Positions 1 to 43,537 of a stretch of 64,000 nucleotides of DNA are shown here, piece by piece (positions within the stretch are counted from its first letter, which is position 1; each line of letters opens with the position of its first letter). The notes beneath the pieces are model-generated. The model ran no database searches and had not been told where the DNA came from. It worked only from the letters and a program-made list of their open reading frames with translations. The stretch is taken from assembly GCF_048403405.1 (NCBI RefSeq), contig NZ_CP183129.1. One strand, written 5' to 3'. This DNA comes from Escherichia coli. GTDB lineage: Bacteria > Pseudomonadota > Gammaproteobacteria > Enterobacterales > Enterobacteriaceae. Made by a program: the position numbers and the translations under genes.

Positions 1-264
1 GAAGCTATTTATGGCAATTATCAAAATAATGTTTTAGCCAATATTATTTTCGTCGACTTCCAGCAACAAGGTGCAAGAGGACTGACGAACGCGCCTGATG
101 AAGATCCGGACGATTTAAGCACGGGATATTACGGTTCAGCGTACCGGTCACCGGAAAACTGGACGACGGCACTGCGAAGCAGTCATTTCAGCGCGGCAGC
201 CCGTCGGGGGATTATTTCTGACAGGTTTGTAGAAGCAATTTTGCAGTTTTGGCGCGAAAGGTGA
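1..264 (+). CDS. 3' end of an unidentified protein (C-terminal 87 codons; gene starts upstream of window)
   Basis: Open frame 1 runs from window edge to TGA at 262-264; convergent with the HNH gene. No family recognised. Confidence 0.3.
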   Translation, partial: EAIYGNYQNNVLANIIFVDFQQQGARGLTNAPDEDPDDLSTGYYGSAYRSPENWTTALRSSHFSAAARRGIISDRFVEAILQFWRER

Positions 265-271
265 GCGTTCA

Positions 272-922
272 TTAATTTGATTTATTTGCATCCATCAACG
301 CTTTTAACTGCTCCGGCGAAAACGGTGGTTTGCGTCGGTGCAGCATCGCATGGCAATTAGGGCACACAGGAAGCAAATCATTAACTGGATCCAGCTGGTA
401 ATCCTCTTTAATGGCTGAAAGCGGCACCAGGTGATGCATATGGATAAAGCCTTCTGCGATATCACCATAGATCTTCACCAGATCAACGCCGCATACGTTG
501 CACTGGCATCCATGATGTTCGACCGCTTTATCTCGGGCCTTTTTATCGCGTTCATAGCGGTTTACTGTCACCTTTATCGCCGCACCTTCAACGTATGTCT
601 CCTGCGACGGCAACTCATCCGGGAACAGAACGTCGGCTATGGTAGCTGCAGCGGCTTTATCCTGATGAATATGAAATCCCTGCTCTATGAGTAGCTTGAC
701 ACATTTAGATTTTATTCCGCCGGTGAAATCCGCAGGGGTAAATTGCGTCCCCGTCATCAATGTCGCTGCGATGCCAGCAATCGCCTTCGAGGGGTAACGT
801 CGGCCATGATATTCAATCTCATACAACCGTGCAGGCTGGAACTGATGAGTTTCTCCCGCATCCCATAAATGGATAGCTTCGATGATATACCGCCGCGGAA
901 GATGGTCGGGAAGTTTATTCAT
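272..922 (-). CDS. HNH endonuclease family protein with unassigned N-terminal domain
   Basis: 216-aa ORF; C-terminal HNH-type motif (HMHHLVPLS ... CPNCHAMLH) with Cys/His pairs; N-terminal ~120 aa unassigned. Confidence 0.55.
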   Translation of the reverse strand: MNKLPDHLPRRYIIEAIHLWDAGETHQFQPARLYEIEYHGRRYPSKAIAGIAATLMTGTQFTPADFTGGIKSKCVKLLIEQGFHIHQDKAAAATIADVLFPDELPSQETYVEGAAIKVTVNRYERDKKARDKAVEHHGCQCNVCGVDLVKIYGDIAEGFIHMHHLVPLSAIKEDYQLDPVNDLLPVCPNCHAMLHRRKPPFSPEQLKALMDANKSN

Positions 923-16091: not shown

Positions 16092-18167
16092 TTAATTCAC
16101 ACCCAGCGCCTTATAAACCGCATCAACCGGGTCTGAGTAAAAACTCACCTGAAACTTGGTAAATAACTCTGCCGGAACCGTTGGAATATCCATAGCCGAG
16201 GACATCGGCAACAGAACCCGTTTTGCGCCGCTGTCGAAGGCGAGCTGTAAACTGGCGGCAAGATCCTGCACCGGGTTAATTACTCCACCAAGGGTCATAC
16301 TGCCCAACACCACCATCTGTTCCTGCACCGGCTTTGCCAGCAATATCGAACATAAAGCGATAAGCGCAGCAAGACTGGTTGCGGTGCTAGGGCCAGTATT
16401 ATGCAGTTCAACGACATGAAGGTGATATTCATGATCAGAGAATTTCGCTGCCGCGCTTACCCGATTCAAATTGCCTTTGAAGTAATCGAAACCGACGCGG
16501 ATAGCTTCTTTCGCGGAGGTATTTGAACCCAGGCCCGATACACTATGCTTACCATTACCGGCAGTCATCTGCGTTTCAAAACGATACAGCCCGGTCATAC
16601 CGCTTTCTGCCTGAGTGACCAAATGCACAACGCCCGGCTTTGGCATTCCGGCAGGAATTAGTTCGCTGCCGCCCTGTTCCGGTACGCTTACAAAAAACTC
16701 TTCCAGCGTTTCGTTATCGATGTAGCTAAAGTTCACATCGAAGAACTCCAGGCCGCCCAGTTTTTTAAGTTGCTCTTTCACTCGACGACGAACTTCCATC
16801 GCATAGGTCAGGCAGACTCGTACATCTTCTTTGCTGTACGCGCCATCGGGATGCATGAGTTTTAACAACCCCGACACTGTACGTCGAACAGCAATCACGT
16901 CACGCTGATTGAGGTTATTTCCCAGCTTGAAGAATTTATCAATTGCATCGGAGAAGCTACGTTTACGCATCTCGCGCATGTATTCAGCGAGATAATCCGT
17001 AATCAAACCATAGCGATTGGTGAAAAATTCCGGGCGCATCTTAGGAATTTCCCAACCAGGAATATAGGCATGGAAGCGGTCAAAAAATGCAGTATCAATC
17101 ATCGCATCCGGGAACGGTGCTAGCAGATGGCTGGTTTTGACCAGTGTATCTACGCTCTGATTGATGTTGCCAACAAACACCATGGAGGCTTTGCCTTCAA
17201 TGGAGTCCCGACCACGAGAGAATGAGCCTGATGCCATGTAATCCTTCATGATCTGCACGCCATCTTTGTCTTTGAAGGTGATCCCTGCCACTTCATCAAA
17301 CGCGACGACGTCCCACATTCCCACAAGACCAATCTGCCGGCTGGCCATGTTGTAAAACAAGTTCGCCACCGTGGTTTGCCCGCCAGATACCAGCAGGGAG
17401 TTAGGAGAGCACTCTTTATAAACATGACTCTTACCTGTACCACGTGGACCAAGCTCGCAGACGTTATAGTTGTTTTCCACAAAGGGAATCATGCGAGTAA
17501 TCAGATGCCACTTGGTACGCTGCTCAATATTTGCAGGTTCCATCCCGACCGAACGTAACAGCACATCAATCCACTGGTCGCGATCAAACTGCTTGCGGGC
17601 TTCAAATACCTCGTCCATATCCATATTTGGCATCTGGATCGGCTTCAGTGTGAACAGCGAGAAAGGAGACGTTTTTTGCCCCTCTTCATAAAAGTAGTTC
17701 ACGGTGATCATGCACCAGATGCCACCAGTCAGCAGTTTCTCGTTGTCTTTCACCATCTGCGACGGCACCAGGGCATCTTTAATGCCAAGGTTAGAGAGCT
17801 GGGCTTCGTAAACGTCTTTCTTCTGATTTAGCTTTACCGTGACCTTATCGATAATCTTGTAAGAACCACGCTCGCGAATTAGTGATTTCACTTTTTCTGC
17901 TTCATCCGGGCGGACGTAGTTATCAGAAAGAATACGCTTAACCGACTGTAGCCCCTGCTCGACAACCTCATCGTCATCGGAGGCACAGTACATACCGAGT
18001 AGATATTCCAGTACGTAAACCGGAACATTCGCCCCTTCTTTAAGTTGCTTAGTCAGATCCTTACGCACCACGCGACCGCGAAAGTGCTGATTCAACAATG
18101 AATCCAGGTCCTGAGCCAACACAGAGGCCGTTTCCATGTTACTGGCTGAGTTATCCTGCTGTTGCAT
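16092..18167 (-). CDS. brxL: BREX BrxL (Lon-like protease-domain ATPase)
   Basis: 691-aa ORF with Walker A (LGPRGTGKSH) and C-terminal Lon-protease-like domain; last gene of the BREX operon. Confidence 0.85.
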   Translation of the reverse strand: MQQQDNSASNMETASVLAQDLDSLLNQHFRGRVVRKDLTKQLKEGANVPVYVLEYLLGMYCASDDDEVVEQGLQSVKRILSDNYVRPDEAEKVKSLIRERGSYKIIDKVTVKLNQKKDVYEAQLSNLGIKDALVPSQMVKDNEKLLTGGIWCMITVNYFYEEGQKTSPFSLFTLKPIQMPNMDMDEVFEARKQFDRDQWIDVLLRSVGMEPANIEQRTKWHLITRMIPFVENNYNVCELGPRGTGKSHVYKECSPNSLLVSGGQTTVANLFYNMASRQIGLVGMWDVVAFDEVAGITFKDKDGVQIMKDYMASGSFSRGRDSIEGKASMVFVGNINQSVDTLVKTSHLLAPFPDAMIDTAFFDRFHAYIPGWEIPKMRPEFFTNRYGLITDYLAEYMREMRKRSFSDAIDKFFKLGNNLNQRDVIAVRRTVSGLLKLMHPDGAYSKEDVRVCLTYAMEVRRRVKEQLKKLGGLEFFDVNFSYIDNETLEEFFVSVPEQGGSELIPAGMPKPGVVHLVTQAESGMTGLYRFETQMTAGNGKHSVSGLGSNTSAKEAIRVGFDYFKGNLNRVSAAAKFSDHEYHLHVVELHNTGPSTATSLAALIALCSILLAKPVQEQMVVLGSMTLGGVINPVQDLAASLQLAFDSGAKRVLLPMSSAMDIPTVPAELFTKFQVSFYSDPVDAVYKALGVN

Positions 18168-18177
18168 AACGCCTCAC

Positions 18178-20775
18178 TTAAAAGAAGTCATCCTGAAATG
18201 CCAGGTCGATCGTGATCGGGTAGCGACCATACTCTGTTGCGCTGTCCGCATTCTCCAGGATAAGAACATACTTGTTTTTACGATTGAATGCCGTCCCCAT
18301 GAGTTTCATGGTTACATCGCGGGTGCGTTTACCCATATCTTCGTTATCACTGTCGAAGCATACTGTTTCCGTGCCGGAGACGACCTGGTTGTTTTCATCG
18401 ACGATAAAGATATTCAGCGTGCGCGGCTCATTTAAATCATTCACTGCCGAAGTCTGAATAAAACCAATTTTATCAATGCTGTTAACCAGTTTGATCACCT
18501 GATCCCGCGCAACGACGGGCACGGGCTGCCGCTGGGGTTGCTTCTCAGCCGCTTTCTTTTCAAGCGCGCGAATCTTCAACACAGGAACACACACTTCCTG
18601 CAGCATGGCTCCGCCATGAACGAAACGAGCACCCCCTACGAAGTGGAAACGCTGTACTCCTTTGGGTAACAGGAATTCACTTTCATCGCTTGCGCCTGCA
18701 GTATCAGCCAGTTTGCCGTGCCAGCAAAATTCACTTTCAGGCAGTTGATGGCCTACAATAAAACGCTTATTCGCTTCAATCGTGTCTTTGGCTTTACTTT
18801 CCAGCTTCGTTTTATCCTGCTCCACCAGCGCTTGTTGTTGGAACAGGAAGCCGTGATCGGCGGTAACAAAAATTCGGCTGGCATTAAATCGGCTACGCAG
18901 GCGTGAAACCAGATCTTTTAGCTCAGTGATTGCACTTCGGCAGGCCTCAAACGTTTTATCTTCCGTTGCAGCCTTATCACCCATGGCATCTATAGTGTCG
19001 TGCCAGATATAAACTACGGAAGCGTTGCGGATTTGCTCGTTCACTTCCTGGTTATTGGCGTTCTGCAAGTCCTTTGCTTTCAGCGCTACACCATTCACCT
19101 TCGCAAGAATAGCGGCTCTTTTTTCAAACCCGGAAGTGGACATCCCATCGGCGTATACTACACCAGAATTATCAGGAAGATAGCTCAACGACTCATGAGG
19201 CAACAGTGCGGCCATGCCCAGTTGGGTATAGCTTGGGAGCACTCCGGTCTGGGAGCGCAGCTCTGCACTGAAGTGCTTCTCATAGTTGATATGCCTGCCC
19301 AGCTCTTCCGCCACTTCGTAGCGCAATGCATCCGAGATCACGACAAAAACACGTTTGACCTGCGAGGTGTCAAACTGACGTTTAACATTCTCTTTATAGA
19401 AATTGCGCTGCAGGGGTATGCCGCTAAACTGCCAGGCCTGCATACGGTTTTCCGCTTCCAGCAGTTTGTTCCAGCCGCGACTTAGTTCAGTCAGATACCA
19501 ATTGCTGTATAACTCTTCGATGAATTTATCCAGTTCATGCAGGATCATCGCCCCTTTGCTGTGCACTGGTGCAGCATATTCATTGAACAAACGATAGGTC
19601 TGATCGAAGCGATAAATTTCGTCACAATAGGCCTTCCAGAACGCACCTGTATCGGGGAAATTAAACCCGTCGGTGTAACGGTTACGCAAATTCAGCAAGC
19701 GTTCTGCCTGACGAATAGCATTCCAGATAGAAAGATACTCTGGGCGGGTTTGGCTCCAGTATTTCGCACTGCGCTCTGAAACCAACGCTTTAAACGCATC
19801 TCTGTCCAGAGTGGTGCTCTCTTCCTGCAACTGTGTCACCAGACCACGGATAATAAGTTGCTCAATAGCCTCGAAGGTTTCACATTTTGCCAGTGTATAT
19901 GGTGAGCTGTAGTTGTAGTGTTCTTTTGGCTGGAGCGTCTGCTGCAAATCCTCTGCACAGTAATCGTATTCTACTTTATAGCGACGATCGTTGCGCCACG
20001 CCCCCATAAAGGCCAGTGACGAGGCCCGACCAGCCGCGGTAGCCAGCACATTTTTACTCAACCAGTCACGATGTGCTTCATCACCCTGCGCCCAGAGATC
20101 GGTACAGAACAGTTTCAGAAGCAGATTTTCCATTGAAGGAGATTCAGACTGGTATCCCAACTCAAGGCGAAGAATTTCCCAAAGTACCTCATCCAGGCCA
20201 AGCTTCGTCAGTACGGCGAAAGTGTTCTCGAGTGCGCTATCATCTTGCTGCCGTGCTGCGACAAACTGCTGAACCAAAGCAAATAGTATTTCTTTGGTTT
20301 CGAAGGTACTGGCCCCGACCACCACCGCCAGCATTTTCTTATCGAGAGAGTTTTCCGTTTCGCGCTCGGTGACCCATCCCTTCAGGATCTGAGTTCGCTT
20401 AACGGTAAAGAAGGCTTTGCGAAGCTGAATATGTTCGCGTAAACCGAGTTGCGGGATACCCAGAGAATTCAGGGTGATCGCCGCATAATCAGCGTGGAAT
20501 TCGGTACTATAGAGGCGGATATCCAGCAACCAGTCCTGCTCGCGAGCAGGAACCTCACAGGTGAAATAGAGTAAAAATTTCTGCTCAGGCTCGTCGATTT
20601 CGAGTCGTTTTTTTGTTGCGAGCACAGAAACGCCACGCATATCCAGCAGCGTGACATTGTCGAGATCCAGCTCATTAATTGAATCAGTGAAGCGTTGTTC
20701 CGGGTCGTGCCAGAAGACGATACGGTTGTCGGTAAACTTCTGACGAAGCCCTGATTCCAGTTCTTTAAATTGCAT
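18178..20775 (-). CDS. pglZ: BREX PglZ (alkaline-phosphatase-superfamily protein)
   Basis: 865-aa ORF with PglZ-type motifs (…VTADHGF…); positioned between the methyltransferase and brxL. Confidence 0.85.
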   Translation of the reverse strand: MQFKELESGLRQKFTDNRIVFWHDPEQRFTDSINELDLDNVTLLDMRGVSVLATKKRLEIDEPEQKFLLYFTCEVPAREQDWLLDIRLYSTEFHADYAAITLNSLGIPQLGLREHIQLRKAFFTVKRTQILKGWVTERETENSLDKKMLAVVVGASTFETKEILFALVQQFVAARQQDDSALENTFAVLTKLGLDEVLWEILRLELGYQSESPSMENLLLKLFCTDLWAQGDEAHRDWLSKNVLATAAGRASSLAFMGAWRNDRRYKVEYDYCAEDLQQTLQPKEHYNYSSPYTLAKCETFEAIEQLIIRGLVTQLQEESTTLDRDAFKALVSERSAKYWSQTRPEYLSIWNAIRQAERLLNLRNRYTDGFNFPDTGAFWKAYCDEIYRFDQTYRLFNEYAAPVHSKGAMILHELDKFIEELYSNWYLTELSRGWNKLLEAENRMQAWQFSGIPLQRNFYKENVKRQFDTSQVKRVFVVISDALRYEVAEELGRHINYEKHFSAELRSQTGVLPSYTQLGMAALLPHESLSYLPDNSGVVYADGMSTSGFEKRAAILAKVNGVALKAKDLQNANNQEVNEQIRNASVVYIWHDTIDAMGDKAATEDKTFEACRSAITELKDLVSRLRSRFNASRIFVTADHGFLFQQQALVEQDKTKLESKAKDTIEANKRFIVGHQLPESEFCWHGKLADTAGASDESEFLLPKGVQRFHFVGGARFVHGGAMLQEVCVPVLKIRALEKKAAEKQPQRQPVPVVARDQVIKLVNSIDKIGFIQTSAVNDLNEPRTLNIFIVDENNQVVSGTETVCFDSDNEDMGKRTRDVTMKLMGTAFNRKNKYVLILENADSATEYGRYPITIDLAFQDDFF

Positions 20776-21344
20776 TATTGATTCTCAAACCATTCGACCA
20801 GTTCATGAGCGCTAGGGCAAGCAGGGTGTCTGGCAGAACTCTGAATATCAAAACCGTGATGCGTTACCATTCTCCTGGCAAATGCGGTTTTAGAACTTCC
20901 CGGTCCCTGTTTTCCTAGCTCGCGTGAAATTACTTTTAAACGATCCCATGGCATTTCAGTTGTAGCTTCAGGTAACTCTTCATTAAATGTGTCTACTTTA
21001 AGCCATTTTTTCATTGCCTCTGAATCGGCAAGAAACCAAGCCTCAACTGCTTTGACTGCGATAAACGAGATGTCGACATCTTGATGGGCAATTCGGGCCC
21101 GTACATCAGCAACAGATGCCGCATCTTCCAGGTCGGTCAGAATACAGATCCGTTCAGCACCTACATTTCTGAGCCTAGCAACGAAATTATCAACATACTT
21201 CGGTAACAGGTTACCACCACCTTTGGCATCAATAACGGGAGTTACCAATTCAAAATTATTCGTGCGCAGAAATGCAATGAACGCTGGTGAATTCACGATG
21301 ATTGACTCAGTATCACCTTCAACGATAAAACCTATTTTTACCAT
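20775..21344 (-). CDS. small TOPRIM-like protein (DUF4276-like) embedded in the BREX operon
   Basis: 189 aa; N-terminal IGFIVEGDTE and downstream ICILTDLED resemble TOPRIM Glu and DxD motifs; start overlaps the ATPase stop by 7 nt and its stop overlaps the pglZ start (TAATG). Confidence 0.6.
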   Translation of the reverse strand: MVKIGFIVEGDTESIIVNSPAFIAFLRTNNFELVTPVIDAKGGGNLLPKYVDNFVARLRNVGAERICILTDLEDAASVADVRARIAHQDVDISFIAVKAVEAWFLADSEAMKKWLKVDTFNEELPEATTEMPWDRLKVISRELGKQGPGSSKTAFARRMVTHHGFDIQSSARHPACPSAHELVEWFENQ

Positions 21345-22459
21345 GGCAAACCGCCATCAAACATATTCATCAGCCACGCGGTATCCAGTGGGATTTCCTT
21401 TTTATCAACCCCCGCATCTGAAGCATGCATCAGCTGAGTTTTCCCCTCTTTTTTACTAACAAACCACAGTTCGTCTGGTTCCAGATTGCGAACAATAGAT
21501 TCACTATGGGTAGTAATAACAATTGGATGATTCAAAGAGGCATTTTCACGCATCAATTGCACAAGTTCCCCAATGGCTTTTGGGTGAATACCGCGTTCAG
21601 GCTCTTCAATAATGGTCATCCCCGTTTGCTGTGCTCGACTCAAGATGGCCGTCATAATACAAAGCGTGAAGATGGTGCCGTCAGAGATAAGATGGGCAGG
21701 AAAGCGGGCACGAGTTCCCTGTTCTTTAAAGGTCAATACCGTTGAGCCATCCAATTTTTGTTTCTCGGTCGATACATTTTCCATCCCCGGAACGATGAGT
21801 TCCATCCACTCCAGTATTTGCTCTTTAAATTCGCTATTCGATTCGAGAGCAGCAAGCACAGAAGCAATGTTTCGACCATGACTGTCCAGAAATGTCGAGT
21901 CAGTTTTGGCGCTATCGGGCTCTTTAGCACGTAACGGATCGATGCGAAAAACAACAATATTGGTCAAAAAAGCGTACAGTTCACTTTTCCCCAGTAGCAT
22001 TAGTGCCGTCATATCTGACGAGTAGTTAGGGATTAAAGTCGCAGGGATTTCATCACTATCGCTCAGGCGAATCATAAGAGTATCAGGGTGCTTACGATCA
22101 ATATAAATATCTCCATCAATGACCAACTTTTCAGTGATTGTTGGTTTTTTATCCATGTTTTTGATCGTCAAGTCATAGGTAAACTGTTTTCCTCCCAGCT
22201 CAATTTGAAGGTGCAGTGAAGCCGTAGTCCGATTTTCCTTACGCAGCTTGTAGCAATGAATCTGCTGAAAACCGCCAAAATCACGGATTGCTTGTGTCGC
22301 CCCGGTTTTCACTACGGCACCAAAAAAAGCCAATGCATCGGTAATGTTACTTTTGCCCGCACCATTGGCTCCAGCAAAGGTGATAAATGGTGGGCTTTCC
22401 ACAAGGGAAAGCTCCGCGATGCTCTTGTAGCCTTTAATAATCAGGGGATGTTGATCCAT
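21338..22459 (-). CDS. ABC-type ATPase (AAA_15/AAA_21-like) embedded in the BREX operon
   Basis: 373 aa; Walker A (GANGAGKSN) near the N-terminus and C-terminal ABC-like H-loop region (IVITTHSESIV); start overlaps the pglX stop (TAATG). Confidence 0.7.
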   Translation of the reverse strand: MDQHPLIIKGYKSIAELSLVESPPFITFAGANGAGKSNITDALAFFGAVVKTGATQAIRDFGGFQQIHCYKLRKENRTTASLHLQIELGGKQFTYDLTIKNMDKKPTITEKLVIDGDIYIDRKHPDTLMIRLSDSDEIPATLIPNYSSDMTALMLLGKSELYAFLTNIVVFRIDPLRAKEPDSAKTDSTFLDSHGRNIASVLAALESNSEFKEQILEWMELIVPGMENVSTEKQKLDGSTVLTFKEQGTRARFPAHLISDGTIFTLCIMTAILSRAQQTGMTIIEEPERGIHPKAIGELVQLMRENASLNHPIVITTHSESIVRNLEPDELWFVSKKEGKTQLMHASDAGVDKKEIPLDTAWLMNMFDGGLPW

Positions 22460-25400
22460 TATGCCTCCTGTGGCGCACTGCCGGTGATCGCCTTGACATC
22501 CGCCAGCAGATCGCCAAATTTGCCGTAGTTAACCTTAACGCCGTCATCCAGATCAATAGTGATACGTCTATCAGCATAGTGACGCAAGCGATCGTCAAAA
22601 TTGCGCAGCTCGTTGAATTTTTTAGTCAACCCATCCAGCTCTTTTTTCAGGCGTGTGGTGGCAGCGCCCGATTCTGCATTTTTAAGCTGATCGTTAACAA
22701 GATCGATATTTCCCTGGTAGCGTGCCAGCAGCGGAACTACATATTCGGTACGCATACGTGACAATGTGCCTTCATTATAACGGTGCAGATACACCAGGCA
22801 CTCAAACGCCTTCTCTTTACCTGAGCTGAATAGCCAGTAAATTGGGCGCTTCTTGTACATCTTCATATGATCTTTCCAGAACTGGGTGGAAAGATAGCGA
22901 CGGATGGTATCCAGCGAAGACTCGCCTTTTTTCGGCTTGATTGCGTACAAGCAGAGGCTTTCGGCGATGAAATCGAGGTTTTCTTGTAAATGTTCTTCGC
23001 CCCAGACTGTGCGAACGAACTCTTTAACGCGGGAGGTAACATCGTCATCGAACCAGTCAGAATCCATTAATGGCAGGATACCATCTTCATCGGCAGGGAA
23101 GGTTTGGTAGGCGCCTTCATCTACTAATTCAGAAAAGCCTTTGTTACCTTCGTGGGCGTAGACCAAGCCTTCGCGATCAAGGGAATAGCGGCCCATCATG
23201 CAGCCAATAGCCAGGCTAAGTGAGTTTATAACCTGAATCGCCTTAAATTGGTTATATTCATCTTTTGAAATTGAGCTTAATGACTGGAAAACATTATTTT
23301 CCAATGTTATTTCTGCCAAGGCAAGATTGTTTTCGTTTAAAATATTGCATTTTTCATAAAATATTTTGTTATTATCACATTCTAGCTCATGTGTTTTGAT
23401 TAACTTTTGATAAAAAACTTCAGTCTGGTTTTTTAATATGTTTACTAGGCTGCCGTTTTGAAACGCATCCTGATTGAAGGAAAACTGATAACTATTTTCC
23501 TGCTGACTCCAATTTTCTTTAGCCAGAGAAATTAGTTCAGCAGTGTTCAAGGATAGGCTCTCAATCATTTTCTCATCAAAAAATGCTGGTAATTTACTTA
23601 TATCCCCCGGTTGATAATTTAATGTTGGAGAGATAGCCTTTATTAAAGAGATAATAATATCACTATTAATAAATGCTAACACAGGCAGGTAAAGGTCTTC
23701 ATTATTAACAAATAACGAAGACCCTGCATTGTCAAATAATGAGGACTCTGAGACTCTTGCAGATGTCTTGCTTGAGGAAAGAGCGTTCCATGTAATCCCT
23801 TTTTTAAATATAAAATCTAAATTATAGTTATGCGAACGTACCTTTCCTGATTTTTCATCGGTAAAATTTTGAATTTCCCGACCATCGTCGAACCAATTTA
23901 CGACATAATCAAGATTACCGTACCACTTTCTATATTCACCACCTTTCTGATAAGGGAACCATTTCAGACCGGATTTTTTAGCTTGAATACGATCAGTAAA
24001 ATCAAAACCGATATTCGCGAAATTAACTTCATGCCAAAAACGTAAAAAACGCTCATTATCCGCTGTTGCCATTCCAAGGCGTGTTGAGGCAATTTGAGAT
24101 ATTTTTTTATTATCAAATAAATTAACCTCACTTTCGCTGAGCCAATACGCAATCGGTGCACCGGGGATTTTTTGGAAGTCATCGGCAGCGGCAGTCTTTA
24201 AACGATCGTTTTTAACCGGAAATTCTTTTGGATATCCTTCATCATTGATATCGTCATTCTCAGTATAAGAGAATGCCCCTTGATAAGAAGGAATGTGAAC
24301 ATTTCTAAACACTGTTGCATTGGTACCAAAGGCAATTTTCATAACGCCATTGCCCATATGTACCATCGTCTCAATAGTGTATTTATCCAATATATTCGCA
24401 CGCATATTTTCATAGCTAGACAAAAACATCCATGATTGCATAGTCACCATTGAGTTGTACGCAGCATCTTTGAGCCAGGAAAAACCCCGCTCAATAAACA
24501 TCGCAAACAAATCTGACTTACTGTCCGGGAATTGTTTCTTAGCGAACTCTTTCAGTTCACCGTTCATCCCTTTCCCACCCATATACGGCGGGTTCGCCAC
24601 AACCGCATCGTAACGCTGCGCCAAAATCCACGCCTGCTGAATATACGGAATCAGCTCTGCTGCCGCTTCTTTCTGCGGGATATCACCCTCGACAGCCAGA
24701 CGATATAGTCCACCCAGGAATGTCTTCAGCGCCGTTTCATCTTCCTGCGGCACCTGAATCAGTGATCCCAGCGTTTTTGCACTAGTGAACAAAGCCAGAG
24801 TACGCATCAGTAGCTTATATTCCGCGCTGTCGGTATTGGCCAGTGACGTCCCTTGGGTAAACATATCTCCCATGCTGCCGCGTTGCGCCTGCTGATGAAA
24901 GTTCAGCTTGGTCCACAGTTCAGCGATATCCAGTTTACTTTCCTGCAGCGAAACGATATTCAGGCGAACGCCACGGCCCAGAATACGACGATCGTCCTGA
25001 CGGGCAAGCATCAGCATCGCAAAACCGGAAAGCTGCGCCGCACGGTCATCAATATCTAGGCCGAAAATATTGTTTTCCAGAATCAGCTGCGGAATGTCAC
25101 GGGTACGGTAGCCACGCTCTTCGTAAATGGCCTTCAGCACGTTATAGGCTTCGGTCAGGATATGCCCGGAGCCGCAGGCCGGGTCCAGCACCTTAATACT
25201 TTCTGGTTCAATGCTTGATGGGGTAATAGCCGCCAGCTGTGCCTGCACTTCCGGCGTTTGTTCCGCTGGCTCAATGTAGTACGGCATTTTGCCTTTCAGG
25301 CTGGAGTCCGGATAGGTTTGCAGCCACTGGCGGCCCACCGAGTTCTGCACCAGATACTGCACAATCCAGTTCGGAGTAAACAGCTGGGTAGCGGCAGGAA

Positions 25401-26112
25401 TATCTTCGCTCTTCACCACCTTGCCGATCACATCATCTTTTTTCTCGGAAATATAAAACTGATACAACCAGCCGATCACTTCGACCTGTTTCCAGTCTTC
25501 TTCAGGAATCGTGTCCACCAGCCCGCGCAGAATAGAGTCGGTGCGAGTCAGGTTATCCGGCAATACCAGTTCGATATCATCATTGACTGCTTCGAACAGG
25601 AAAGGCATAGCGCCGTGCAGCGCATGGCACTGTGCAAGCAATAGTTCACGGTACAGCTCTTCGTCACGATCGCCCGCCAGCTTCATCTCCACCAGGCGTG
25701 ATTTGTCCAGCCCAAGTGCATCAGCCACTTCCGGCACATGATCCAGAACCTCAAAACTCCCTTCCAGGGTCGGGTGAGACAGCATACGGAAACCGTGATC
25801 AAGATAGCCATGCAGCTCCATATAGCGAATAGCGCAAAAGCGGTTAAACCAGGTGTAAGCGATGTGCTCCACCAGCACGTCATAGCCCTGCTTTTCTGCA
25901 CGCTTGACCAGACGTTCACGGCGTGAAGCCAGTGATTTATCCAGCGAGAACTGACCATATCGCACACTGTCGCCAAGATCGGTTGCTTGCGCTATTTGCA
26001 GGTTGCCTTTTTTATCGGCGTCAATACCCAGCGTGGTCAGTTTTTGCATGACCGCATCGCGGAACTGTTTACGTGCCACCGGGGCGTATTTTTTGATATT
26101 TGACGTATTCAT
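22459..26112 (-). CDS. pglX: BREX PglX (N6-adenine DNA methyltransferase / specificity protein)
   Basis: 1217-aa ORF with methyltransferase motif I (LDPACGSGHIL) and motif IV (VVANPPYMGG); AT-rich central to C-terminal block. Confidence 0.85.
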   Translation of the reverse strand: MNTSNIKKYAPVARKQFRDAVMQKLTTLGIDADKKGNLQIAQATDLGDSVRYGQFSLDKSLASRRERLVKRAEKQGYDVLVEHIAYTWFNRFCAIRYMELHGYLDHGFRMLSHPTLEGSFEVLDHVPEVADALGLDKSRLVEMKLAGDRDEELYRELLLAQCHALHGAMPFLFEAVNDDIELVLPDNLTRTDSILRGLVDTIPEEDWKQVEVIGWLYQFYISEKKDDVIGKVVKSEDIPAATQLFTPNWIVQYLVQNSVGRQWLQTYPDSSLKGKMPYYIEPAEQTPEVQAQLAAITPSSIEPESIKVLDPACGSGHILTEAYNVLKAIYEERGYRTRDIPQLILENNIFGLDIDDRAAQLSGFAMLMLARQDDRRILGRGVRLNIVSLQESKLDIAELWTKLNFHQQAQRGSMGDMFTQGTSLANTDSAEYKLLMRTLALFTSAKTLGSLIQVPQEDETALKTFLGGLYRLAVEGDIPQKEAAAELIPYIQQAWILAQRYDAVVANPPYMGGKGMNGELKEFAKKQFPDSKSDLFAMFIERGFSWLKDAAYNSMVTMQSWMFLSSYENMRANILDKYTIETMVHMGNGVMKIAFGTNATVFRNVHIPSYQGAFSYTENDDINDEGYPKEFPVKNDRLKTAAADDFQKIPGAPIAYWLSESEVNLFDNKKISQIASTRLGMATADNERFLRFWHEVNFANIGFDFTDRIQAKKSGLKWFPYQKGGEYRKWYGNLDYVVNWFDDGREIQNFTDEKSGKVRSHNYNLDFIFKKGITWNALSSSKTSARVSESSLFDNAGSSLFVNNEDLYLPVLAFINSDIIISLIKAISPTLNYQPGDISKLPAFFDEKMIESLSLNTAELISLAKENWSQQENSYQFSFNQDAFQNGSLVNILKNQTEVFYQKLIKTHELECDNNKIFYEKCNILNENNLALAEITLENNVFQSLSSISKDEYNQFKAIQVINSLSLAIGCMMGRYSLDREGLVYAHEGNKGFSELVDEGAYQTFPADEDGILPLMDSDWFDDDVTSRVKEFVRTVWGEEHLQENLDFIAESLCLYAIKPKKGESSLDTIRRYLSTQFWKDHMKMYKKRPIYWLFSSGKEKAFECLVYLHRYNEGTLSRMRTEYVVPLLARYQGNIDLVNDQLKNAESGAATTRLKKELDGLTKKFNELRNFDDRLRHYADRRITIDLDDGVKVNYGKFGDLLADVKAITGSAPQEA

Positions 26113-26160
26113 ATGAAGTCCTGAAAAGGGCAGACAATGTCTGCCCTGAAAATGGGGAAA

Positions 26161-29100
26161 TTACTGAAGCTGTACGCGTTCACCTGCGTTAATGGCATCC
26201 ATTAGCGTTTTACGGAGTTGTTCCAGCGCTTTGTCTACCTGTTCGGCGTTATCCAGCGTTGTCACACCCGCCGCTCGTTCCATCGTTTTACGCGTGTTTA
26301 CGTAGATGGTTTTTTTCAGCTTGGGTTCAGGCTTAACTACGGGGTCGATAATCCCAGGCTGAGGAGCAGGTTTTGGATCAGACACTTTCTTACGCTGATC
26401 CTCAACCCAGCCGTTCAGCCGTTCATTCGCTTTAAATTGTAGCGCTCGAACCTCAGCCTGTTCTTCCATAATCTGTGGGATCAGGCCGTTCTGCTCCACT
26501 TTCTTACGCGATTGTTGCATCGGGTGTAAAAGCGAGTGTTGCAAGTCAGCAGGGACGTGCATCTCCTGCATGCTTTGCTTAAGTTCATTGATATGACCAT
26601 CGATCTGTAGCAGCGCATGGCTTCGATATTCTTCGACCAGACGCTGGTTGATGGTTTCAACGGTTTCAATCAGCGGGATAATCCGATGCAGTTCTCCATA
26701 AGGTCGTGCCTTGCTGTAGATCCCTTCCAGTTCCTGTAACGCCTTTTGGGCCGTTTCGTCTTTATCCAGCGCGTTACGGTTAGCTTTAAAACTGCCATTC
26801 AACGCCATACTCAAGCGCTGCCAGGTAGCGTATTGGTTTTTGTAGAAGCTAACCAAATCGTCCCAGTCTTCCGAGAAATCTTTAAGATCGTCAGCCGCTG
26901 CGGTGATTTTTTCAATGACCGCGTATTCCTCTTTCTCGTTAAGGATCCCGTTCAGCAATACCAGACCTTCTTCTATCTCTTTACGGCCAGGGTTTTGTCC
27001 ACTCTCTGCACGAGTTTTAAAAACAGTCAACTCGCTATTCCAGCGGCCAAAGAGTTCGCGAATATGAGAGACCAACGACTGTTCTTCACGCTCGTTAAAC
27101 GGCTCTCCAGCAATCTCTGCCATCAGCTGCGCAGCTTTAGTCAACTGTGCTTCATCATGGCGACGAACTTTATGCAGACGCAAATCGCTGTAACGACGTG
27201 AATTATTAAACGCGTCCCACGCCTGCTTCAGTGCGATTTCACTGCCTTGCAGAGTGAAGCTGTATTTACCGCTGCGTGCCAGCCGAGCAACCAGCAATTT
27301 GACTTCATCTTCCGGCCAGCCAAACGGGCGACGGCCAAAAGTGGTGAGAATATCCCGCAGGTAAACTGGCTTATGAGTCTCAATACTCATGCTGATCCAG
27401 TTATCCACTTCACGCATCGCCTCTGGGTTGGATTCTTCCATACCCCCGAGATCGAGCTGGGTATCATTTTCTACTGTCAACAGCGCGTGAGTTTCACGAT
27501 TTACGTCTCCGGTACTAAGACGCAGCAATTTTAGTTTAGAGAAACTGTTCTCGATAACGTAACCGCAGGCTGCATCCACGATAGCTAACGGCGAAGAGGA
27601 TTTCTTATCCAGCCGTTCGCCCAGCGCCCAGACATCAGCTTGAGCCAGCAAGCCTTCAATCTGCGCCTTAAGCGTTTTTTCACGCATACTATTTTCACGG
27701 CCTTTTTCCGCCAACAGCGTTGCCTGTTCCGGGCGCTGGCCGCTTTGCTTGCTGAGGAAAGCTTTGGTCTGAGCGTACATGGTCAGGTCTTGCCAGGTAC
27801 GAGCCTCATCAGGCAGGCAAATTAAGATGCAGTCTTTACTGTCCGTCATCAGCAGACTATTAGAATGCGCACCCTTATAGCTCTCGTAGTTCGAGTCCAG
27901 TGGCGTGAGCACTTTAACCACCAGATCGTTAAGATTCGCACCATCCAGCGGATGTCCGTTACAAAAACGACTGATATCAAAATCCTGCTTATTGGCCGGA
28001 TAGCGATATCTTTTGTTTTTCAGGATCTCTTCGAAAATGATGGTTGAGAGTTGCTTATTGATGGTGGTGAATTCCACGTCAATATTGCGGATTTCGTTTT
28101 CAATCTCTTTTTCTTCGTTAGTGAGAAAAACAAATTTGTCATCAATACGCGAGATCAGCATCTCAGCCTGCAGACGATTAAGGCTGGCTTCAATCTGTCG
28201 ACGGAGTTCCACTTTATCAGTATCAATACGCTCAATAGAGAGCGTGACGAGATTGTCGAGAGTACTTTTCAGCACATCGACGTAGCGGATCAGGAACAGT
28301 GTCTTTAGTAGTTTGCCGTCAAATTCAGTCAGTGACGGAGACTGGCAGGCCTGAATAATAGTGCGGCTAACTGCAGGTTCCAGGAAGCTTTCAATCGCTG
28401 AATAGAAGCGCCAGAACGGGACCAGACTATCCAGACCATCTGCGGAGATTTGCACAGCAGCCGACTGGAAGGCATCTAGCAAAGAGCGCTCCCCCATTGC
28501 CAGCTGCTTACCTGCGGCCCCTTTAGTACGGATTGATTCAAAGACTTTTTGCAGGATCTGGTAATGCCACGGTACAAACGGATAGTTATCCACGAACTCG
28601 CGGCTGTTTGTATAGGCTCGCAGAGTAGCGGTCGTTGTCGTGTCAAACGCCAACTGGTTACGCAGAATATCGCCTTTTTCCTGCCAGATAGCTTCCAGCG
28701 CCGGTATTGCCGCATCGGTTTTTACCAGCAGACGTTTCTGGATAACTTCTGAAGTATTCGAGCTGGAGAGTTGTAAGCGCGTTGAGAAACGTCCCTGAAT
28801 CTTGGAGAAGTCCTGACCATCACGACTGCTCATACCGCCAATAGCAGCATTAATGTCAGCCTGGGAGGTAACTATCACCCATGCCCGCCCACCACAAATA
28901 ACGCCCAAGTTTTCGGTGATAGTTTGCAGCTTGAGCATCATCTGAGCATCTTTACCAATGAACTGACCAACTTCATCGACCATAAACAGGATATTGCGAT
29001 TACCATGGCTGTCGAGCCACTCTTTCACCCACGTACAGAAATTTTTGATATCCAATGGGAAGTTCTTATCAAGTTGCTCGATCCATTGACGAGAAGACTC

Positions 29101-29775
29101 TTCACTCTGGCCTGTAGCAATACTCAGTGCCTGAGCCATCTGATCGTTTATCATCAGATAAACATCACGTTCGTCTTCCCAGCGAGACCCTGTAATGTCC
29201 GCGAAGGCTGCCCTAAAGGTATCAAATTGTCCACGCTTATCGAGCTCACGTTCCAGATGTGCAATATGTGGGAAGTCGCCACAATAACCAGCTAGTTCGT
29301 TAAAGACTTTCAGAAAGACTTTGAGTATGGCATCAACGCCATCTTCAACATTCGCACGTGAGTCAATATTGAATAATATGACATCGGTCGGATGTTGTAC
29401 CGATTTCCGAATATCAGCCAATAGCAGTGCATCATCAATTTTCTCTTCAAAGAAGGAAAGTGCATTACGAGTGACACCATTATGGCTTACTTCGCGGTTC
29501 GCCAGTAGATAGGATAAGATCTTAATGAAGTGTGATTTACCCGAACCAAAGAAGCCTGAAACCCAGACGCCTATTTTGTCAGCAAGCTGTAATCTGCCAG
29601 GGCCAGTAGCAGGGGCATATACTTCAAAGAACTGACGCAGGTGACCATCCAGCTCTCTGGTAATGACATACTCATCCAGTTCTATCCAGGCGCTTTCGTC
29701 GTCGGTCTGCTCGGCTTTAACCACGCCGTTAATATTACGTTTTAGCTGTTTCTCAAAAATTTGTTCAATATTCAT
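26161..29775 (-). CDS. brxC: BREX BrxC/PglY (large P-loop ATPase)
   Basis: 1204-aa ORF with N-terminal Walker A (GFFGSGKSHFIKIL); position between brxB and pglX. Confidence 0.85.
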   Translation of the reverse strand: MNIEQIFEKQLKRNINGVVKAEQTDDESAWIELDEYVITRELDGHLRQFFEVYAPATGPGRLQLADKIGVWVSGFFGSGKSHFIKILSYLLANREVSHNGVTRNALSFFEEKIDDALLLADIRKSVQHPTDVILFNIDSRANVEDGVDAILKVFLKVFNELAGYCGDFPHIAHLERELDKRGQFDTFRAAFADITGSRWEDERDVYLMINDQMAQALSIATGQSEESSRQWIEQLDKNFPLDIKNFCTWVKEWLDSHGNRNILFMVDEVGQFIGKDAQMMLKLQTITENLGVICGGRAWVIVTSQADINAAIGGMSSRDGQDFSKIQGRFSTRLQLSSSNTSEVIQKRLLVKTDAAIPALEAIWQEKGDILRNQLAFDTTTTATLRAYTNSREFVDNYPFVPWHYQILQKVFESIRTKGAAGKQLAMGERSLLDAFQSAAVQISADGLDSLVPFWRFYSAIESFLEPAVSRTIIQACQSPSLTEFDGKLLKTLFLIRYVDVLKSTLDNLVTLSIERIDTDKVELRRQIEASLNRLQAEMLISRIDDKFVFLTNEEKEIENEIRNIDVEFTTINKQLSTIIFEEILKNKRYRYPANKQDFDISRFCNGHPLDGANLNDLVVKVLTPLDSNYESYKGAHSNSLLMTDSKDCILICLPDEARTWQDLTMYAQTKAFLSKQSGQRPEQATLLAEKGRENSMREKTLKAQIEGLLAQADVWALGERLDKKSSSPLAIVDAACGYVIENSFSKLKLLRLSTGDVNRETHALLTVENDTQLDLGGMEESNPEAMREVDNWISMSIETHKPVYLRDILTTFGRRPFGWPEDEVKLLVARLARSGKYSFTLQGSEIALKQAWDAFNNSRRYSDLRLHKVRRHDEAQLTKAAQLMAEIAGEPFNEREEQSLVSHIRELFGRWNSELTVFKTRAESGQNPGRKEIEEGLVLLNGILNEKEEYAVIEKITAAADDLKDFSEDWDDLVSFYKNQYATWQRLSMALNGSFKANRNALDKDETAQKALQELEGIYSKARPYGELHRIIPLIETVETINQRLVEEYRSHALLQIDGHINELKQSMQEMHVPADLQHSLLHPMQQSRKKVEQNGLIPQIMEEQAEVRALQFKANERLNGWVEDQRKKVSDPKPAPQPGIIDPVVKPEPKLKKTIYVNTRKTMERAAGVTTLDNAEQVDKALEQLRKTLMDAINAGERVQLQ

Positions 29776-29787
29776 TGCTGTCGTCTT

Positions 29788-30390
29788 TTAACGAGGAGTC
29801 AAAGTCGCCGCCGGTCTGGTTTCTGGTACCAGTCTGAAGGCGCGGTAATAGTTACGAGAATTAATGCCAGCGAGTGGAGAAAGATCGTATCCGCTATAGG
29901 TGCCTGGATAGAACATCAGCAATGGTGTAAATCCCATCACGTCCTGAAGTGCGCTCATTAGCTCATGACCACGAACCAACGGCCAGGCGTTACCAAGTCC
30001 CGTCAGAATGACAAATTGCTGCGCAGGAAGATCGACCGTGCGTGCAATATATTCCGCGATTTTTTTCTGGCTTAGCGGGGCAGCCAGATGCTTTTTCAGT
30101 GTCTCAAGGCCAAGCTCAGGCTCTCGTTGGCAGATACGTTCAAAGAGCTTACGTTCTTCCAACATATCGATGATAATCTGGAAGATATTTAGCGTTTTAT
30201 AGGTGTACTTTTTATCCAGTTTTTTGAATAAAAAGTGCAAGTACTCGCGGACCTGAAGCTCTTGTTTTGCCGGATAATCAAAGATCCAGAAGCCAATCTC
30301 ATTGCCGGAACCTTGGTTTTTCAAAAAACGGTCGTCGCCGATACGTTCTTCTAACTGTTTTAATCGGTATTCAAGGATCGGGTCATTCAT
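29788..30390 (-). CDS. brxB: BREX BrxB (DUF1788-like)
   Basis: 200-aa ORF between brxA and brxC; 4-nt overlap with brxA. Confidence 0.7.
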   Translation of the reverse strand: MNDPILEYRLKQLEERIGDDRFLKNQGSGNEIGFWIFDYPAKQELQVREYLHFLFKKLDKKYTYKTLNIFQIIIDMLEERKLFERICQREPELGLETLKKHLAAPLSQKKIAEYIARTVDLPAQQFVILTGLGNAWPLVRGHELMSALQDVMGFTPLLMFYPGTYSGYDLSPLAGINSRNYYRAFRLVPETRPAATLTPR

Positions 30391-31007
30391 GCGTTACCCT
30401 CCAGAATAGGGAGCAGTTCGGCTTTGTTTAAACGATGCAAGGCCGCTGCAACAACTGGTAGCAGGAAAACGTTTTGTAAATTGCGGCGGCGTGGGCTATC
30501 CAGGTAACCAGCTTCTGCGAGAGCCTTAATAAGATTGTTACCCATCTTTTGGATCGATGAATCAGAAAAAGCTGCCAGTTCCGGGTGTAAACGGAGATTC
30601 TCATCCACAAACTCACTCCAACAATTTATACCAAGCTTTTCTTTAAACTGCTGACGAGCTGGATTTACAACTTCAGCAATAAACGTCGCAACAACTGGAG
30701 ACTGGATCATCAACGCAACCAACAACATTTGCAGACGCTCGCTTTCACTGCCATCAGCAATCAGTTGCCAGCACTCCCGATCCAGGGTCATCAATCGCAG
30801 CCTTAAGGTTCGGGCATAACGATTTGCCGTACTCGTGGAGGACGCCTGAAGAATATTTTCATTGATTATTTGCTGCTGCCAGGTTGTTTCATCTGGTTCA
30901 GAGAGCAACAGCTCAGCAATGGTTCGGCTCTCACGAACCATCAACGAACCACCCAGCAGATCGCCAATCCAGCGTTTGTCATTTTTTGTCATGGTATTTA
31001 TCATCAA
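30387..31007 (-). CDS. brxA: BREX BrxA (DUF1819-like)
   Basis: 206-aa first gene of the operon, preceded by ~570 bp of non-coding DNA. Confidence 0.7.
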   Translation of the reverse strand: MMINTMTKNDKRWIGDLLGGSLMVRESRTIAELLLSEPDETTWQQQIINENILQASSTSTANRYARTLRLRLMTLDRECWQLIADGSESERLQMLLVALMIQSPVVATFIAEVVNPARQQFKEKLGINCWSEFVDENLRLHPELAAFSDSSIQKMGNNLIKALAEAGYLDSPRRRNLQNVFLLPVVAAALHRLNKAELLPILEGNA

Positions 31008-31574: not shown

Positions 31575-32920
31575 TCACCTTCTCAGCGGATTGTTAACCT
31601 TTGCATATTCAAACGGACTGATACCCTTCTCTCTGTTCGCATCCAGAAAATCCGCCCACCACTGTAACATCAGCTTGCGCTCATCCAGATGTTCCGCTTT
31701 ATGGATATACGCCGCCCTCACCGAATTGCGTTCCATATGGCTCATCTGCCTTTCCACCGCATCCTTCGACCATAGCCCTGACTCAATTAACGAACTACAG
31801 ACCATTGTGCGGAAGCCGTGGCCGCAAACTTCAACCTTAGTGTCATAACCCATCACCCGTAGTGCACTGTTTACCGTGTTCTCGCTCATGGGCTTACGCG
31901 GATCATGATCGCCAATAAAAATCAGCTCATGTTCGCCACAGAACTGTTTTATCTGCTTCAGGGTCGCTAGCGCCTGCTTTGAAAGCGGCACTAGATGAGG
32001 TGTACGCATCTTTGATCCTCGCTGAGAATGTTTCACGCCGGGAATAGGCTCTCGCTCAGGCGGGATGGTCCACATCGACGTGTCGAAATCTATCTCCGAC
32101 CAGCGAGCAAAACGCAGCTCACTGGATCGAATAAAGATAAGCAGAGTAAGTTCAGTTGCCCAGCGGGTTAGTGGCCTGCCGGTGTATTCATCGATTTTCT
32201 GGAGTAATTCCGGGATACGCTTTAACTCCAGCGCCGGACGATGCTGTCGATTACTGGAAGCAACCGCCCCCGCCATCTCTTGCGCCGGATTGTAATCAAT
32301 TAACCCGCTTTGCACTGCATAACGCATGATGGCCGTAGTGCGCTGTTGAAGGCGGGAAGCCACTTCAAGACGTCCGGACTTCTCCACGGCTTTAATAGGA
32401 ATTAACAGATCGCGGGTGCCTAGTTCAGCAATGTTGCGAGTACCAATTGCCGGGAAGATATTCTCCTCCAAGCTCTTTTTAGACGATTAGCATGATATTC
32501 CGACCATTTTTGGTTGGTCACGAGCCACTATTTGGCAACCTTCTCGAAAGTAATAATCTCTTTCGCCTGCTCTTCTTTCACAGCACGTTTATGCTCACGA
32601 GGATCGATACCAGCAGCTACCAGCTTTCTGGCCTCTTCCCTTTTCTTCCGCGCATCCGCCAGCGAAACATCCGGGTAAACGCCGAACGCCATCAAATGTT
32701 GTTTACCACCAGAACGGAAACGAAATCACCAATACTTTGAACCGCCAGGTTTTACAAGTAAAGACATGCCGTCGCCGTCAACAAGTGAATACTCTTTCTC
32801 CTCTGACTTCACAGAACGAACTTTAGTATCCGTTAGGGCAATAATGGTCTTCCTTCCATTGGTATCTCGTGAGTATACAAGCAATATCGAATCGGCAAAT
32901 ATGCTTATTAGTATACTCAC
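31575..32920 (-). pseudogene. P4-type tyrosine integrase (intB-like), disrupted
   Basis: N-terminal arm-binding fragment (ORF 32726..32920, …LTDTKVRSVK…GGSKYW) ends at an in-frame TGA; catalytic remainder (ORF 31575..32471) is in a different frame. Confidence 0.7.
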
Positions 32921-33007
32921 AAGCCTGTTGATGTGGGTTGAGTCAGGTTGACTTCAGTTGAGGAGAAAAGCTGGAAAAGCCTTGCGTGGTGCGGATTTCA
33001 GGCATAA

Positions 33008-33030
33008 AAAAAGACCTCAGTTGAGGTCTA
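33008..33030 (-). terminator. rho-independent terminator of leuX
   Basis: Hairpin agacctca-ac-tgaggtct followed by a T-run on the minus strand, just past the tRNA 3' end. Confidence 0.5.
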
Positions 33031-33042
33031 TTTACATACTTT

Positions 33043-33127
33043 TGGTGCCGAAGGCCGGACTCGAACCGGCACGTATTTCTACGGTTGATTTTGAATCAAC
33101 TGCGTCTACCGATTTCGCCACTTCGGC
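33043..33127 (-). tRNA. leuX: tRNA-Leu (anticodon CAA)
   Basis: Reverse complement reads GCCGAAGTGGCGAAATCGGTAGACGCAGTTGATTCAAAATCAACCG…GGTTCGAGTCCGGCCTTCGGCACCA, with CAA in the anticodon loop and a 3' CCA. Confidence 0.9.
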
Positions 33128-39393: not shown

Positions 39394-39470
39394 GTTATTT
39401 TCTCTGCATTACACATATTCTCTTTGCCGGACGTTGCCTATACTCCAGGCAGGAAACTGGAGGAAATCTC

Positions 39471-40973: not shown

Positions 40974-40984
40974 GTCAGACGTGA

Positions 40985-41045
40985 TCTGTGCCCCTCACCC
41001 TAACCCTCTCCCCAAAGGGGCGAGGGGACCGTTCGAACTCGTATT
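40985..41045. repeat. GC-rich palindromic intergenic repeat (copy 1)
   Basis: ccctcaccctaaccctctccccaaaggggcgagggg palindrome between convergent yjgR and lptG; near-identical copy at 45062-45105. Confidence 0.5.
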
Positions 41046-41091
41046 TGACTTTGTCAACAATAATAAAGGGAGCTTTCGCTCCCTTGTTAGA

Positions 41092-43274: not shown

Positions 43275-43537
43275 TTTAAATACGCCCGTAAAAACTCGTC
43301 TTTTGCAGGATTTTAGCTTGTTTCATGGCTTAAACGTCATTTATTCTCTTGAGTCGTCGAAATCGTCGCTAAGATAATTATACTCAACGGATTCACCTCT
43401 CAGATTTTGTTCTGACGTGCCAATGCCGTAATAACGTTAAGATTAACACGAAGTCATCGCAACAGCGGACATGAGTTACGAAAGCTTGCAATTCTATCTG
43501 TAGCCACCGCCGTTGTCTTTAAGATTCAGGAGCGTAG

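Follow-up and report, generated by a model that had tools for sequence, protein, structure and literature searches.

What broke the integrase that stands beside leuX in this Escherichia coli genome, and is its loss what keeps the adjoining BREX island in place? The locus lies in a 64,000-nucleotide stretch of contig NZ_CP183129.1 (assembly GCF_048403405.1), which we refer to as the window. leuX is E. coli defense hotspot #37, the most occupied of 41; BREX has been found only at hotspots #37 and #1, and Wadjet and AbiE are typical #37 occupants, "with replacement" (PMC10121019; PMC12707154). For most cases at hotspot #37, the mode of mobilization "could not be readily determined" (Hochhauser et al. 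2023, PMC10121019). leuX is already well described as a hypervariable defense hotspot, and a pseudogene call alone adds nothing. Our best overall explanation, to which we assign a probability of about 0.8, is that homologous recombination produced a dead, chimeric integrase and that the BREX island is now a fixed locus that would be unable to excise.

The integrase gene beside leuX and its lesions

We identify the tRNA-Leu(CAA) gene as E. coli leuX because ahr, idnK, and idnD lie on its high-coordinate side (Table 1). The integrase starts 200 nt from the leuX 3' end, across a spacer in which P4-type arm repeats (GGGGGCA) were not evident by eye. Searches of Pfam with the intact ortholog recovered three domains, namely PF13356 Arm-DNA-bind_3 at residues 3-87 (9e-29), PF22022 Phage_int_M at 99-193 (3.6e-28), and PF00589 Phage_integrase at 206-384 (1.2e-19; model positions 4-170 of 172), and the window encodes the same residues, lesions apart. 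NCBIfam gave just a below-cutoff match to a generic "integrase domain." Inspection of the 298-aa ORF, rather than residue-level alignment to a characterized enzyme, shows RSSELR, HGFR, SH, and AAY motifs. In a tblastn comparison with phage P4 Int (X51522 / NC_001609), the intact ortholog is 57.9% identical over residues 1-409, or 97% of its length (E = 6e-155). Since the protein is this close to P4 Int and the P4 attP core is the end of leuX, the view of the initial annotation that this is a P4-type integrase is well founded, as is its position next to its own attachment tRNA. The retained att repeat extends to about 33066 in relatives with tandem islands, where junction copies occur in loci L006, L009, and L011.

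Table 1. Coordinates of the leuX-proximal features, the integrase lesions, and the BREX island in the window
Feature	Coordinates	Strand	Evidence or remarks
Distal island edge; HNH endonuclease gene at 272-922 (-), then C-terminally truncated nanS just beyond position 1	1..922	.	No leuX repeat
Type 1 BREX operon, cargo linked to the 3' part of the integrase	16092..31007	-	ORFs; PGAP names in TUM14771
P4-family tyrosine integrase pseudogene, stop codon included	31575..32842	-	ORFs and codon alignment; same span annotated as a pseudogene in E. coli TUM14771
3' portion of the chimeric gene, roughly codons 134-422; open, with what remains of the central domain and the catalytic domain	31575..32441	-	Near-identical to the intact BREX-linked allele
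Recombination crossover interval, flanked by the nearest intact-type site (32441) and the nearest remnant-type site (32463)	32442..32462	.	Single switch
5' portion of the chimeric gene, roughly codons 1-127; allele of the old remnant resident at leuX, with all four lesions	32463..32842	-	18 of the 21 L015-type sites within the span
Lesion 4: codon 121 GTA>CTA and one A lost (A6>A5; A5 at 32476-32480), -1 frameshift	32476..32482	-	Alignment
Lesion 3: codon 105 GAG>TAG, start of the central (core-binding) domain	32528..32530	-	Common to L015/L016 only
Lesion 2: codon 39 CGA>TGA, within Arm-DNA-bind_3	32726..32728	-	Common to L009 and L015
Lesion 1: start codon ATG>ATT	32840..32842	-	Common to the XDL remnant (L009) and L015
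leuX-integrase spacer, 41% GC, resident-remnant haplotype	32843..33042	-	3/3 informative sites match L015
Terminator-like hairpin and T-run just downstream of leuX, from island-side DNA	33012..33029	-	Inverted repeat; conserved in all island alleles compared
att core, last 20 nt of leuX	33043..33062	-	20/20 identical to the annotated phage P4 attP core GAGTCCGGCCTTCGGCACCA
leuX, tRNA-Leu(CAA), attachment-site gene of the island	33043..33127	-	ARAGORN (one tRNA gene in the window), Rfam tRNA

A comparison of base content does not bear out the abrupt change from AT-rich island to core DNA that had been reported at the tRNA. GC content is 46.2% over positions 1-33042 and 49.6% over 33128-64000, the integrase gene itself stands at 49.8%, and the core genes past the tRNA run from 55% (ahr) to 43% (idnK), values by which we reject a sharp compositional boundary at this point.

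In the six-frame ORF list, the integrase falls into three pieces on the minus strand: 32726-32920, 32528-32695 in the same frame, and 31575-32471 in another. We aligned these codon by codon with the closest intact ortholog, that of E. coli 2014C-3338 (locus L003; WP_052920518.1, 422 aa; 98.5% nucleotide identity over the region). The true start is at 32842; position 32920, which the initial annotation had taken as the end of the gene, is the GTG of a mechanical ORF. Four disabling lesions, accompanied by several missense changes, separate the gene from its ortholog. The TGA splits the arm-binding domain mid-way, and the TAG and the frameshift strike the start of the core-binding domain. Between the TGA at codon 39 and the TAG at codon 105 lie 65 codons in unchanged frame, and the last 298 codons form an ORF in the other frame (31575-32471) that begins 255 nt below the TGA. 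The reading frame is not intact: the gene is a pseudogene of the P4 integrase family, and the integrase beside leuX is dead.

Much of this had been anticipated by the initial annotation, which described an in-frame TGA after the N-terminal arm-binding segment and a catalytic part in another frame some 250 nt downstream. Its summary of the damage as a nonsense codon and a frameshift was right that the gene is dead and that both lesions are real but missed the lost start and the TAG; the alignment to an intact P4-family integrase that it proposed is what placed all four. The pseudogene call itself was also already known, as RefSeq flags the identical allele as "frameshifted; internal stop." That allele is carried by TUM14771, which is 99.994% identical over window positions 1-33581 (one mismatch, one gap) and in which PGAP annotates a tyrosine recombinase pseudogene.

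A homopolymer sequencing error, with a gene that is really intact, had been named as an alternative. The frameshift does fall in a homopolymer (A6>A5), and one further homopolymer-length difference, private to the window, lies beyond the gene at 31543. However, three of the four lesions are base substitutions, and the same 91-bp lesion stretch recurs in 10 of 5,426 complete E. coli genomes, which were independently assembled, come from different countries and hosts, and contain all four lesions. An assembly or sequencing artifact is effectively refuted.

One might also ask whether the broken gene retains some function, either through the 298-codon ORF translated from an internal start or through initiation at ATT with read-through, so that the island would still have an active recombinase. 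The ORF is uninterrupted and near-identical to the intact allele, and it covers the whole Pfam catalytic domain with the HGFR and terminal Tyr motifs. It nonetheless has none of the arm-binding domain and lacks ~26 residues at the start of the central domain, it begins with TTG at no good Shine-Dalgarno spacing that we could see, and the sole promoter-like match in the region is no better than chance. To make a full-length product, translation would have to begin at a non-canonical start, read through two stops, and change frame, and either product would have no distal att to act on. Residual recombinase activity is accordingly very improbable.

Two ancestries within one gene

Where the lesions came from is best seen in a three-way comparison of the window with the intact allele of 2014C-3338 (L003) and the remnant allele of strain Res13-Lact-PER13-34 (Res13; L015), which differ from each other at 65 sites. 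The window agrees with L003 at 44/44 sites in 32059-32441 and with L015 at 21/21 sites in 32463-32990, with one switch between the two (Fisher p = 1.6e-17). On the leuX side of this switch, the window and L015 have 0 differences in 32446-33042 and 8 differing positions from 32451 to ~38378, a tract that runs through leuX, ahr, and idnKDOT; immediately to the left of the breakpoint, they differ at 44/390 positions. Compared with L003, the window shows 0/390 differences in 32056-32445 and 3/481 in 31575-32055, the three being K274Q, A348V, and one synonymous change. The integrase of the window is a chimera, with a remnant-type 5' part and a BREX-linked 3' part, and we infer that homologous recombination, crossing over within 32442-32462, brought the two together.

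Had the BREX island integrated with a working integrase that later acquired a nonsense mutation and a frameshift under relaxed selection, leaving the island stranded, one would also find a dead gene beside leuX and linked to BREX. Decayed leuX integrases are moreover common, an example being the CFT073 copy, which is "frameshifted; internal stop" with different lesions. Such decay in place is unlikely here, however. Of the 24 differences from the intact allele, the gene's first ~380 nt hold 18, the leuX-integrase spacer 3, and the gene's last ~870 nt 3, so that 21 of 24 lie at or above 32463, an uneven spread that is unexpected under uniform neutral decay. The mutated segment is the allele of strains that have a truncated integrase and other cargo, and the identity with them continues through leuX into ahr-idn. 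Finally, the leuX-integrase spacer is of the remnant type and would have been replaced by a simple site-specific integration of BREX; simple integration of a BREX element is excluded as a source of the arrangement on the same ground.

Under the recombination that we favor, the 5' ~380 nt of the gene, the spacer, leuX, and ahr-idn form one haplotype, which elsewhere is tied to a long-dead, truncated remnant beside Wadjet-type cargo, and the last ~870 nt match the intact integrase that accompanies the BREX island in other strains. The integrase would then either have been killed by that exchange or never have been alive in this lineage, with no decay in place by successive point mutations.

The source of the 5' haplotype can be followed in strains that have the remnant. 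Res13 and MEI003 (L016) are 2 of the 10 genomes with the lesion stretch, but their locus is different: next to leuX lies an integrase remnant of 777 bp, cut short by a transposase fragment, and after it come a WYL regulator and cargo consisting of three large unnamed ORFs and a gene annotated as Wadjet JetD domain-containing, with no BREX. We read this cargo as Wadjet-type. The remnants of O157:H7 (L011), XDL (L009), and Res13/MEI003 share one truncation point (window-equivalent 32056) beside a transposase remnant, and they can be ranked by damage. That of O157:H7 has the normal ATG and CGA and no point lesions; that of XDL, which shows no difference from the window across codons 1-38 (0/114), has the ATT and the TGA; and that of Res13 has the ATT, TGA, TAG, and frameshift together with an extra 5-bp deletion. 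The simplest reading would be that truncation had already killed the integrase and that lesions then accumulated in it stepwise. Beyond codon ~44, XDL is no longer like the window, so that further recombination has taken place, and the stepwise series should be taken as a simplification. Mosaicism is pervasive. Seven of the changes in the window are packed into 70 bp (32463-32532); among the 5,426 E. coli genomes, we found no donor for the 5' segment or for this cluster outside the 10-genome group, and exact 40-mer searches of 100,044 species-representative genomes yielded none for the cluster.

Two orders of events fit the data, and both would produce the observed junction. In one, BREX and the 3' part of the integrase would have been imported into a locus bearing the remnant, replacing older cargo. 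In the other, a ~6.5-kb block comprising the dead 5' integrase segment, leuX, ahr, and the idn operon would have been imported into a genome with an intact integrase and BREX. Several genomes with the intact integrase have no idn operon. Many genomes have an ahr-idn tract with at least 99.3% identity. The wider core at 39400-51400 is at least 99% identical only in the window's own small lineage, at least 1.1% diverged from every genome outside it, and 98.3-98.5% identical in Res13/MEI003. Among relatives of this core, we found no sister genome with a different leuX state that could polarize the exchange. A second crossover was not located on the distal side, where the fim-nan core of TUM14771 and Res13 is ~1% diverged for >11 kb.

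Separate movement of integrase and cargo is seen in other strains as well. The brxA/brxB region is nearly identical in L003, L004, L005, and the plasmid-borne L007, and the integrase genes of these loci differ by 3-6% from that of the window. Cargo and integrase thus have separate histories in those strains, and breakpoints between the two recur.

The BREX island and its distal edge

That the island carries BREX, as had been proposed, is borne out by the gene content: brxA (DUF1819), brxB (DUF1788), brxC, pglX, pglZ, and brxL, the set that defines type 1 BREX, occur in one cluster. Nested in the operon between pglX and pglZ is a pair encoding an AAA ATPase and a DUF4276 protein (PADLOC HEC-01A/B), which PGAP names AAA ATPase and hypothetical protein in TUM14771.

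On the far side, the same flank, with the HNH gene and the truncated nanS, is found in TUM14771, Res13, and 2014C-3338, and the distal edge of the island reads as a shared deletion scar in nanS, at or just past window position 1. An adjacent gene for a phosphorothioate-dependent restriction endonuclease is intact in Res13 and 2014C-3338 and is present as a 150-bp fragment in the window lineage.

We scanned the region between leuX and the fim genes for att repeats. Searches with 23-24-mers allowing up to 3 mismatches detected no second leuX 3' end in the window, as the initial annotation had judged by eye, nor in the 45 kb of TUM14771 to fimF or the equivalent stretches of Res13 and 2014C-3338. 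Other probes for a distal att (24-, 20-, and 17-mers with mismatches and exact 13-mers of the tRNA and its flank), run over the window and these three genomes' loci, returned nothing beyond leuX itself. The direct att repeats that would bound an excisable island at both ends are represented by one copy within the scanned region. A distal repeat is absent even from 2014C-3338, in which the integrase of the BREX island is intact, and so immobility does not rest on the integrase alone.

Judged from its sequence, the ~33-kb island probably cannot excise, and three obstacles stand in the way: the arm-binding domain and part of the core-binding domain cannot be made, a second leuX att core is missing from the far end, and that end is a nanS deletion scar. 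The initial annotation had the island probably immobilized at leuX by its dead integrase. That it very probably cannot excise stands, and on two independent grounds, since the distal att is missing too, and is so even where the integrase is intact. The integrase lesions are perhaps not the first cause of immobility, nor its sole one. BREX would then be a fixed chromosomal locus here, inherited vertically and exchanged only by homologous recombination through the conserved flanks.

The leuX att site itself is still in use. Four genomes of the window's lineage have acquired a second, CP4-like island at leuX, whose insertion pushed the pseudogene and BREX inward and left a 23-nt degenerate leuX repeat at the junction. 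Copies of the intact integrase with BREX, together with 43 nt of leuX, are also found on large plasmids.

Relation to other leuX and P4-like islands

Phage P4 Int and the P4-like integrases of tRNA islands, such as intP4 of GI-pheV, share with the window gene the three-domain architecture and the target at the end of leuX (the P4 attP core); the window gene differs from them in being dead and chimeric. At GI-pheV, intP4 alleles follow the chromosome and the cargo is mosaic (PMC11537424), a pattern that the leuX locus shares.

Closer still are the leuX integrases of CFT073, O157:H7, XDL, and Res13, which belong to the same family, occupy the same site, and are likewise non-functional, those of O157:H7, XDL, and Res13 being 5' remnants. 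The XDL and Res13 remnants share lesions with the window. CFT073, in contrast, keeps the ATG and CGA where the window has its first two lesions, and its decay is therefore independent of that in the window. The truncated remnants are without the 3' 480 nt of the gene, which the window appears to have regained from the intact allele.

The StySA BREX system of Salmonella Typhimurium offers a parallel in another species, being a BREX-1 system in a variable island at leuX with a P4-family integrase and a later-acquired, ATPase-containing pair (Zaworski et al. 2022, PMC9009780). The window has the same combination of BREX-1 at leuX, a P4-family integrase, and an extra ATPase-containing pair within the cluster. 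The nested pairs differ in their descriptions: ATPase-DUF4495 in StySA vs AAA ATPase and DUF4276 here.

With hotspot #37 as a whole, the locus has in common the same anchor integrase at one end, and BREX, AbiE, and Wadjet all occur in the window or the compared strains. The papers on this hotspot leave the mode of mobilization open, and the window supplies one concrete junction inside the anchor integrase. The chimeric origin is a modest new point, consisting of one explicit recombination junction at the leuX hotspot. The single ancestry switch, 44 sites followed by 21, is a concrete case of a defense island, or its flank, exchanged through the anchor integrase by homologous recombination. It also advises caution in inference from annotation, as the argument that an integrase has decayed and its island is therefore immobile can misstate both causality and history.

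More tentatively, the leuX integrase, dead or alive, may serve mainly as a homology arm, with BREX and Wadjet cargo swapped between lineages by crossovers inside or beside the gene, although we would put this at somewhat below even odds. If true, it would account for the lack of any detectable mobile element with most hotspot #37 occupants, and it would mean that recombination can kill or resurrect an integrase as a side effect.

Cargo and backbone of the leuX island

At the distal end of the island, the gene for a phosphorothioate-dependent restriction endonuclease is reduced to a 150-bp fragment, and it is intact both in Res13, a strain with a truncated integrase remnant, and in 2014C-3338, which carries an intact BREX-linked integrase. 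The AbiEi/AbiEii pair next to this fragment is missing from the 2014C-3338 island. Further in, a GTPase-family gene is broken into two overlapping ORFs; the corresponding gene is annotated as "frameshifted" in the near-identical genome of E. coli TUM14771, and 2014C-3338 has an intact version. It is a second case of a decayed gene in the island backbone. The island also contains a full-length Rfam match (136.9 bits) to the Hfq-binding sRNA isrN, adjoined by an IS3 transposase pseudogene.

The BREX operon is itself interrupted, between pglX and pglZ, by a two-gene insert encoding an AAA ATPase and a DUF4276 protein. The pair gives full-length matches to the PADLOC candidate system HEC-01A/B (E = 1e-181 and 5e-100); AbiL and AriA are matched less strongly. 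The insert resembles the ATPase pair found inside the StySA BREX system of Salmonella. Within pglX, the BREX methyltransferase gene, an internal stretch of ~1.2 kb has no nucleotide match in the 2014C-3338 island, which apart from this stretch is ~98% identical to the window. The overlapping 1-kb bin (23001–24000) has a GC content of only 36.7%. The stretch looks like a swapped target-recognition segment.

Features of the island, the core flank, and related replicons
Feature	Location	Strand	Remark
Restriction endonuclease fragment	within 1058–2928		
AbiEi/AbiEii toxin–antitoxin pair	1524–2928	(−)	adjoins restriction endonuclease fragment
GTPase-family gene	9633–10645	(−)	
isrN	14934–15075	(−)	
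Two-gene insert	20775–22459	(−)	
AAA ATPase	in insert	(−)	373 aa; HEC-01A/B pair
DUF4276 protein	in insert	(−)	189 aa; HEC-01A/B pair
pglX internal stretch	23208–24409	(−)	
Inverted repeat	32866–32923		
argF–tabA block	52001–54000		
555-aa ORF	52118–53785	(−)	within argF–tabA block
CP4-like island junction	L006 (strain 98205), 4640–4700		likewise in L009 (XDL) and L011 (O157:H7)
Plasmid-borne integrase/BREX copy	L007 (plasmid pX14-3-NDM), 3001–4688		five further plasmids

Surroundings of the integrase pseudogene and the core flank

Over the 1.75-kb region compared, the window differs from its closest relatives solely at position 31543, where an intergenic C/G run below the integrase stop codon is one base shorter, possibly through a homopolymer sequencing error. 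Immediately upstream of the integrase start lies a 13-nt inverted repeat (CTCGTGAGTATAC / GTATACTCACAAG) with arms that are 92% complementary and separated by 32 nt, possibly serving as an operator or an arm-type site.

Beyond leuX, the core flank has a variable locus of its own between argF and tabA, a low-GC block (31–37%) with a 555-aa ORF for which a search of NCBIfam returned no match. The Res13 counterpart at this locus is a longer, highly divergent gene.

Second islands and plasmid copies

Four genomes of the same lineage carry a second, CP4-like island integrated at leuX, which lies between the tRNA and the integrase pseudogene with BREX and so separates them. Its junction retains a degenerate 23-nt leuX repeat with one C missing. 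Islands at leuX therefore accumulate in tandem.

On large plasmids the integrase gene is present in intact form, accompanied by the BREX operon and by 43 nt from the 3′ end of leuX, and another tyrosine recombinase adjoins this fragment. A leuX-island fragment, chromosomal in origin, has moved onto plasmids.
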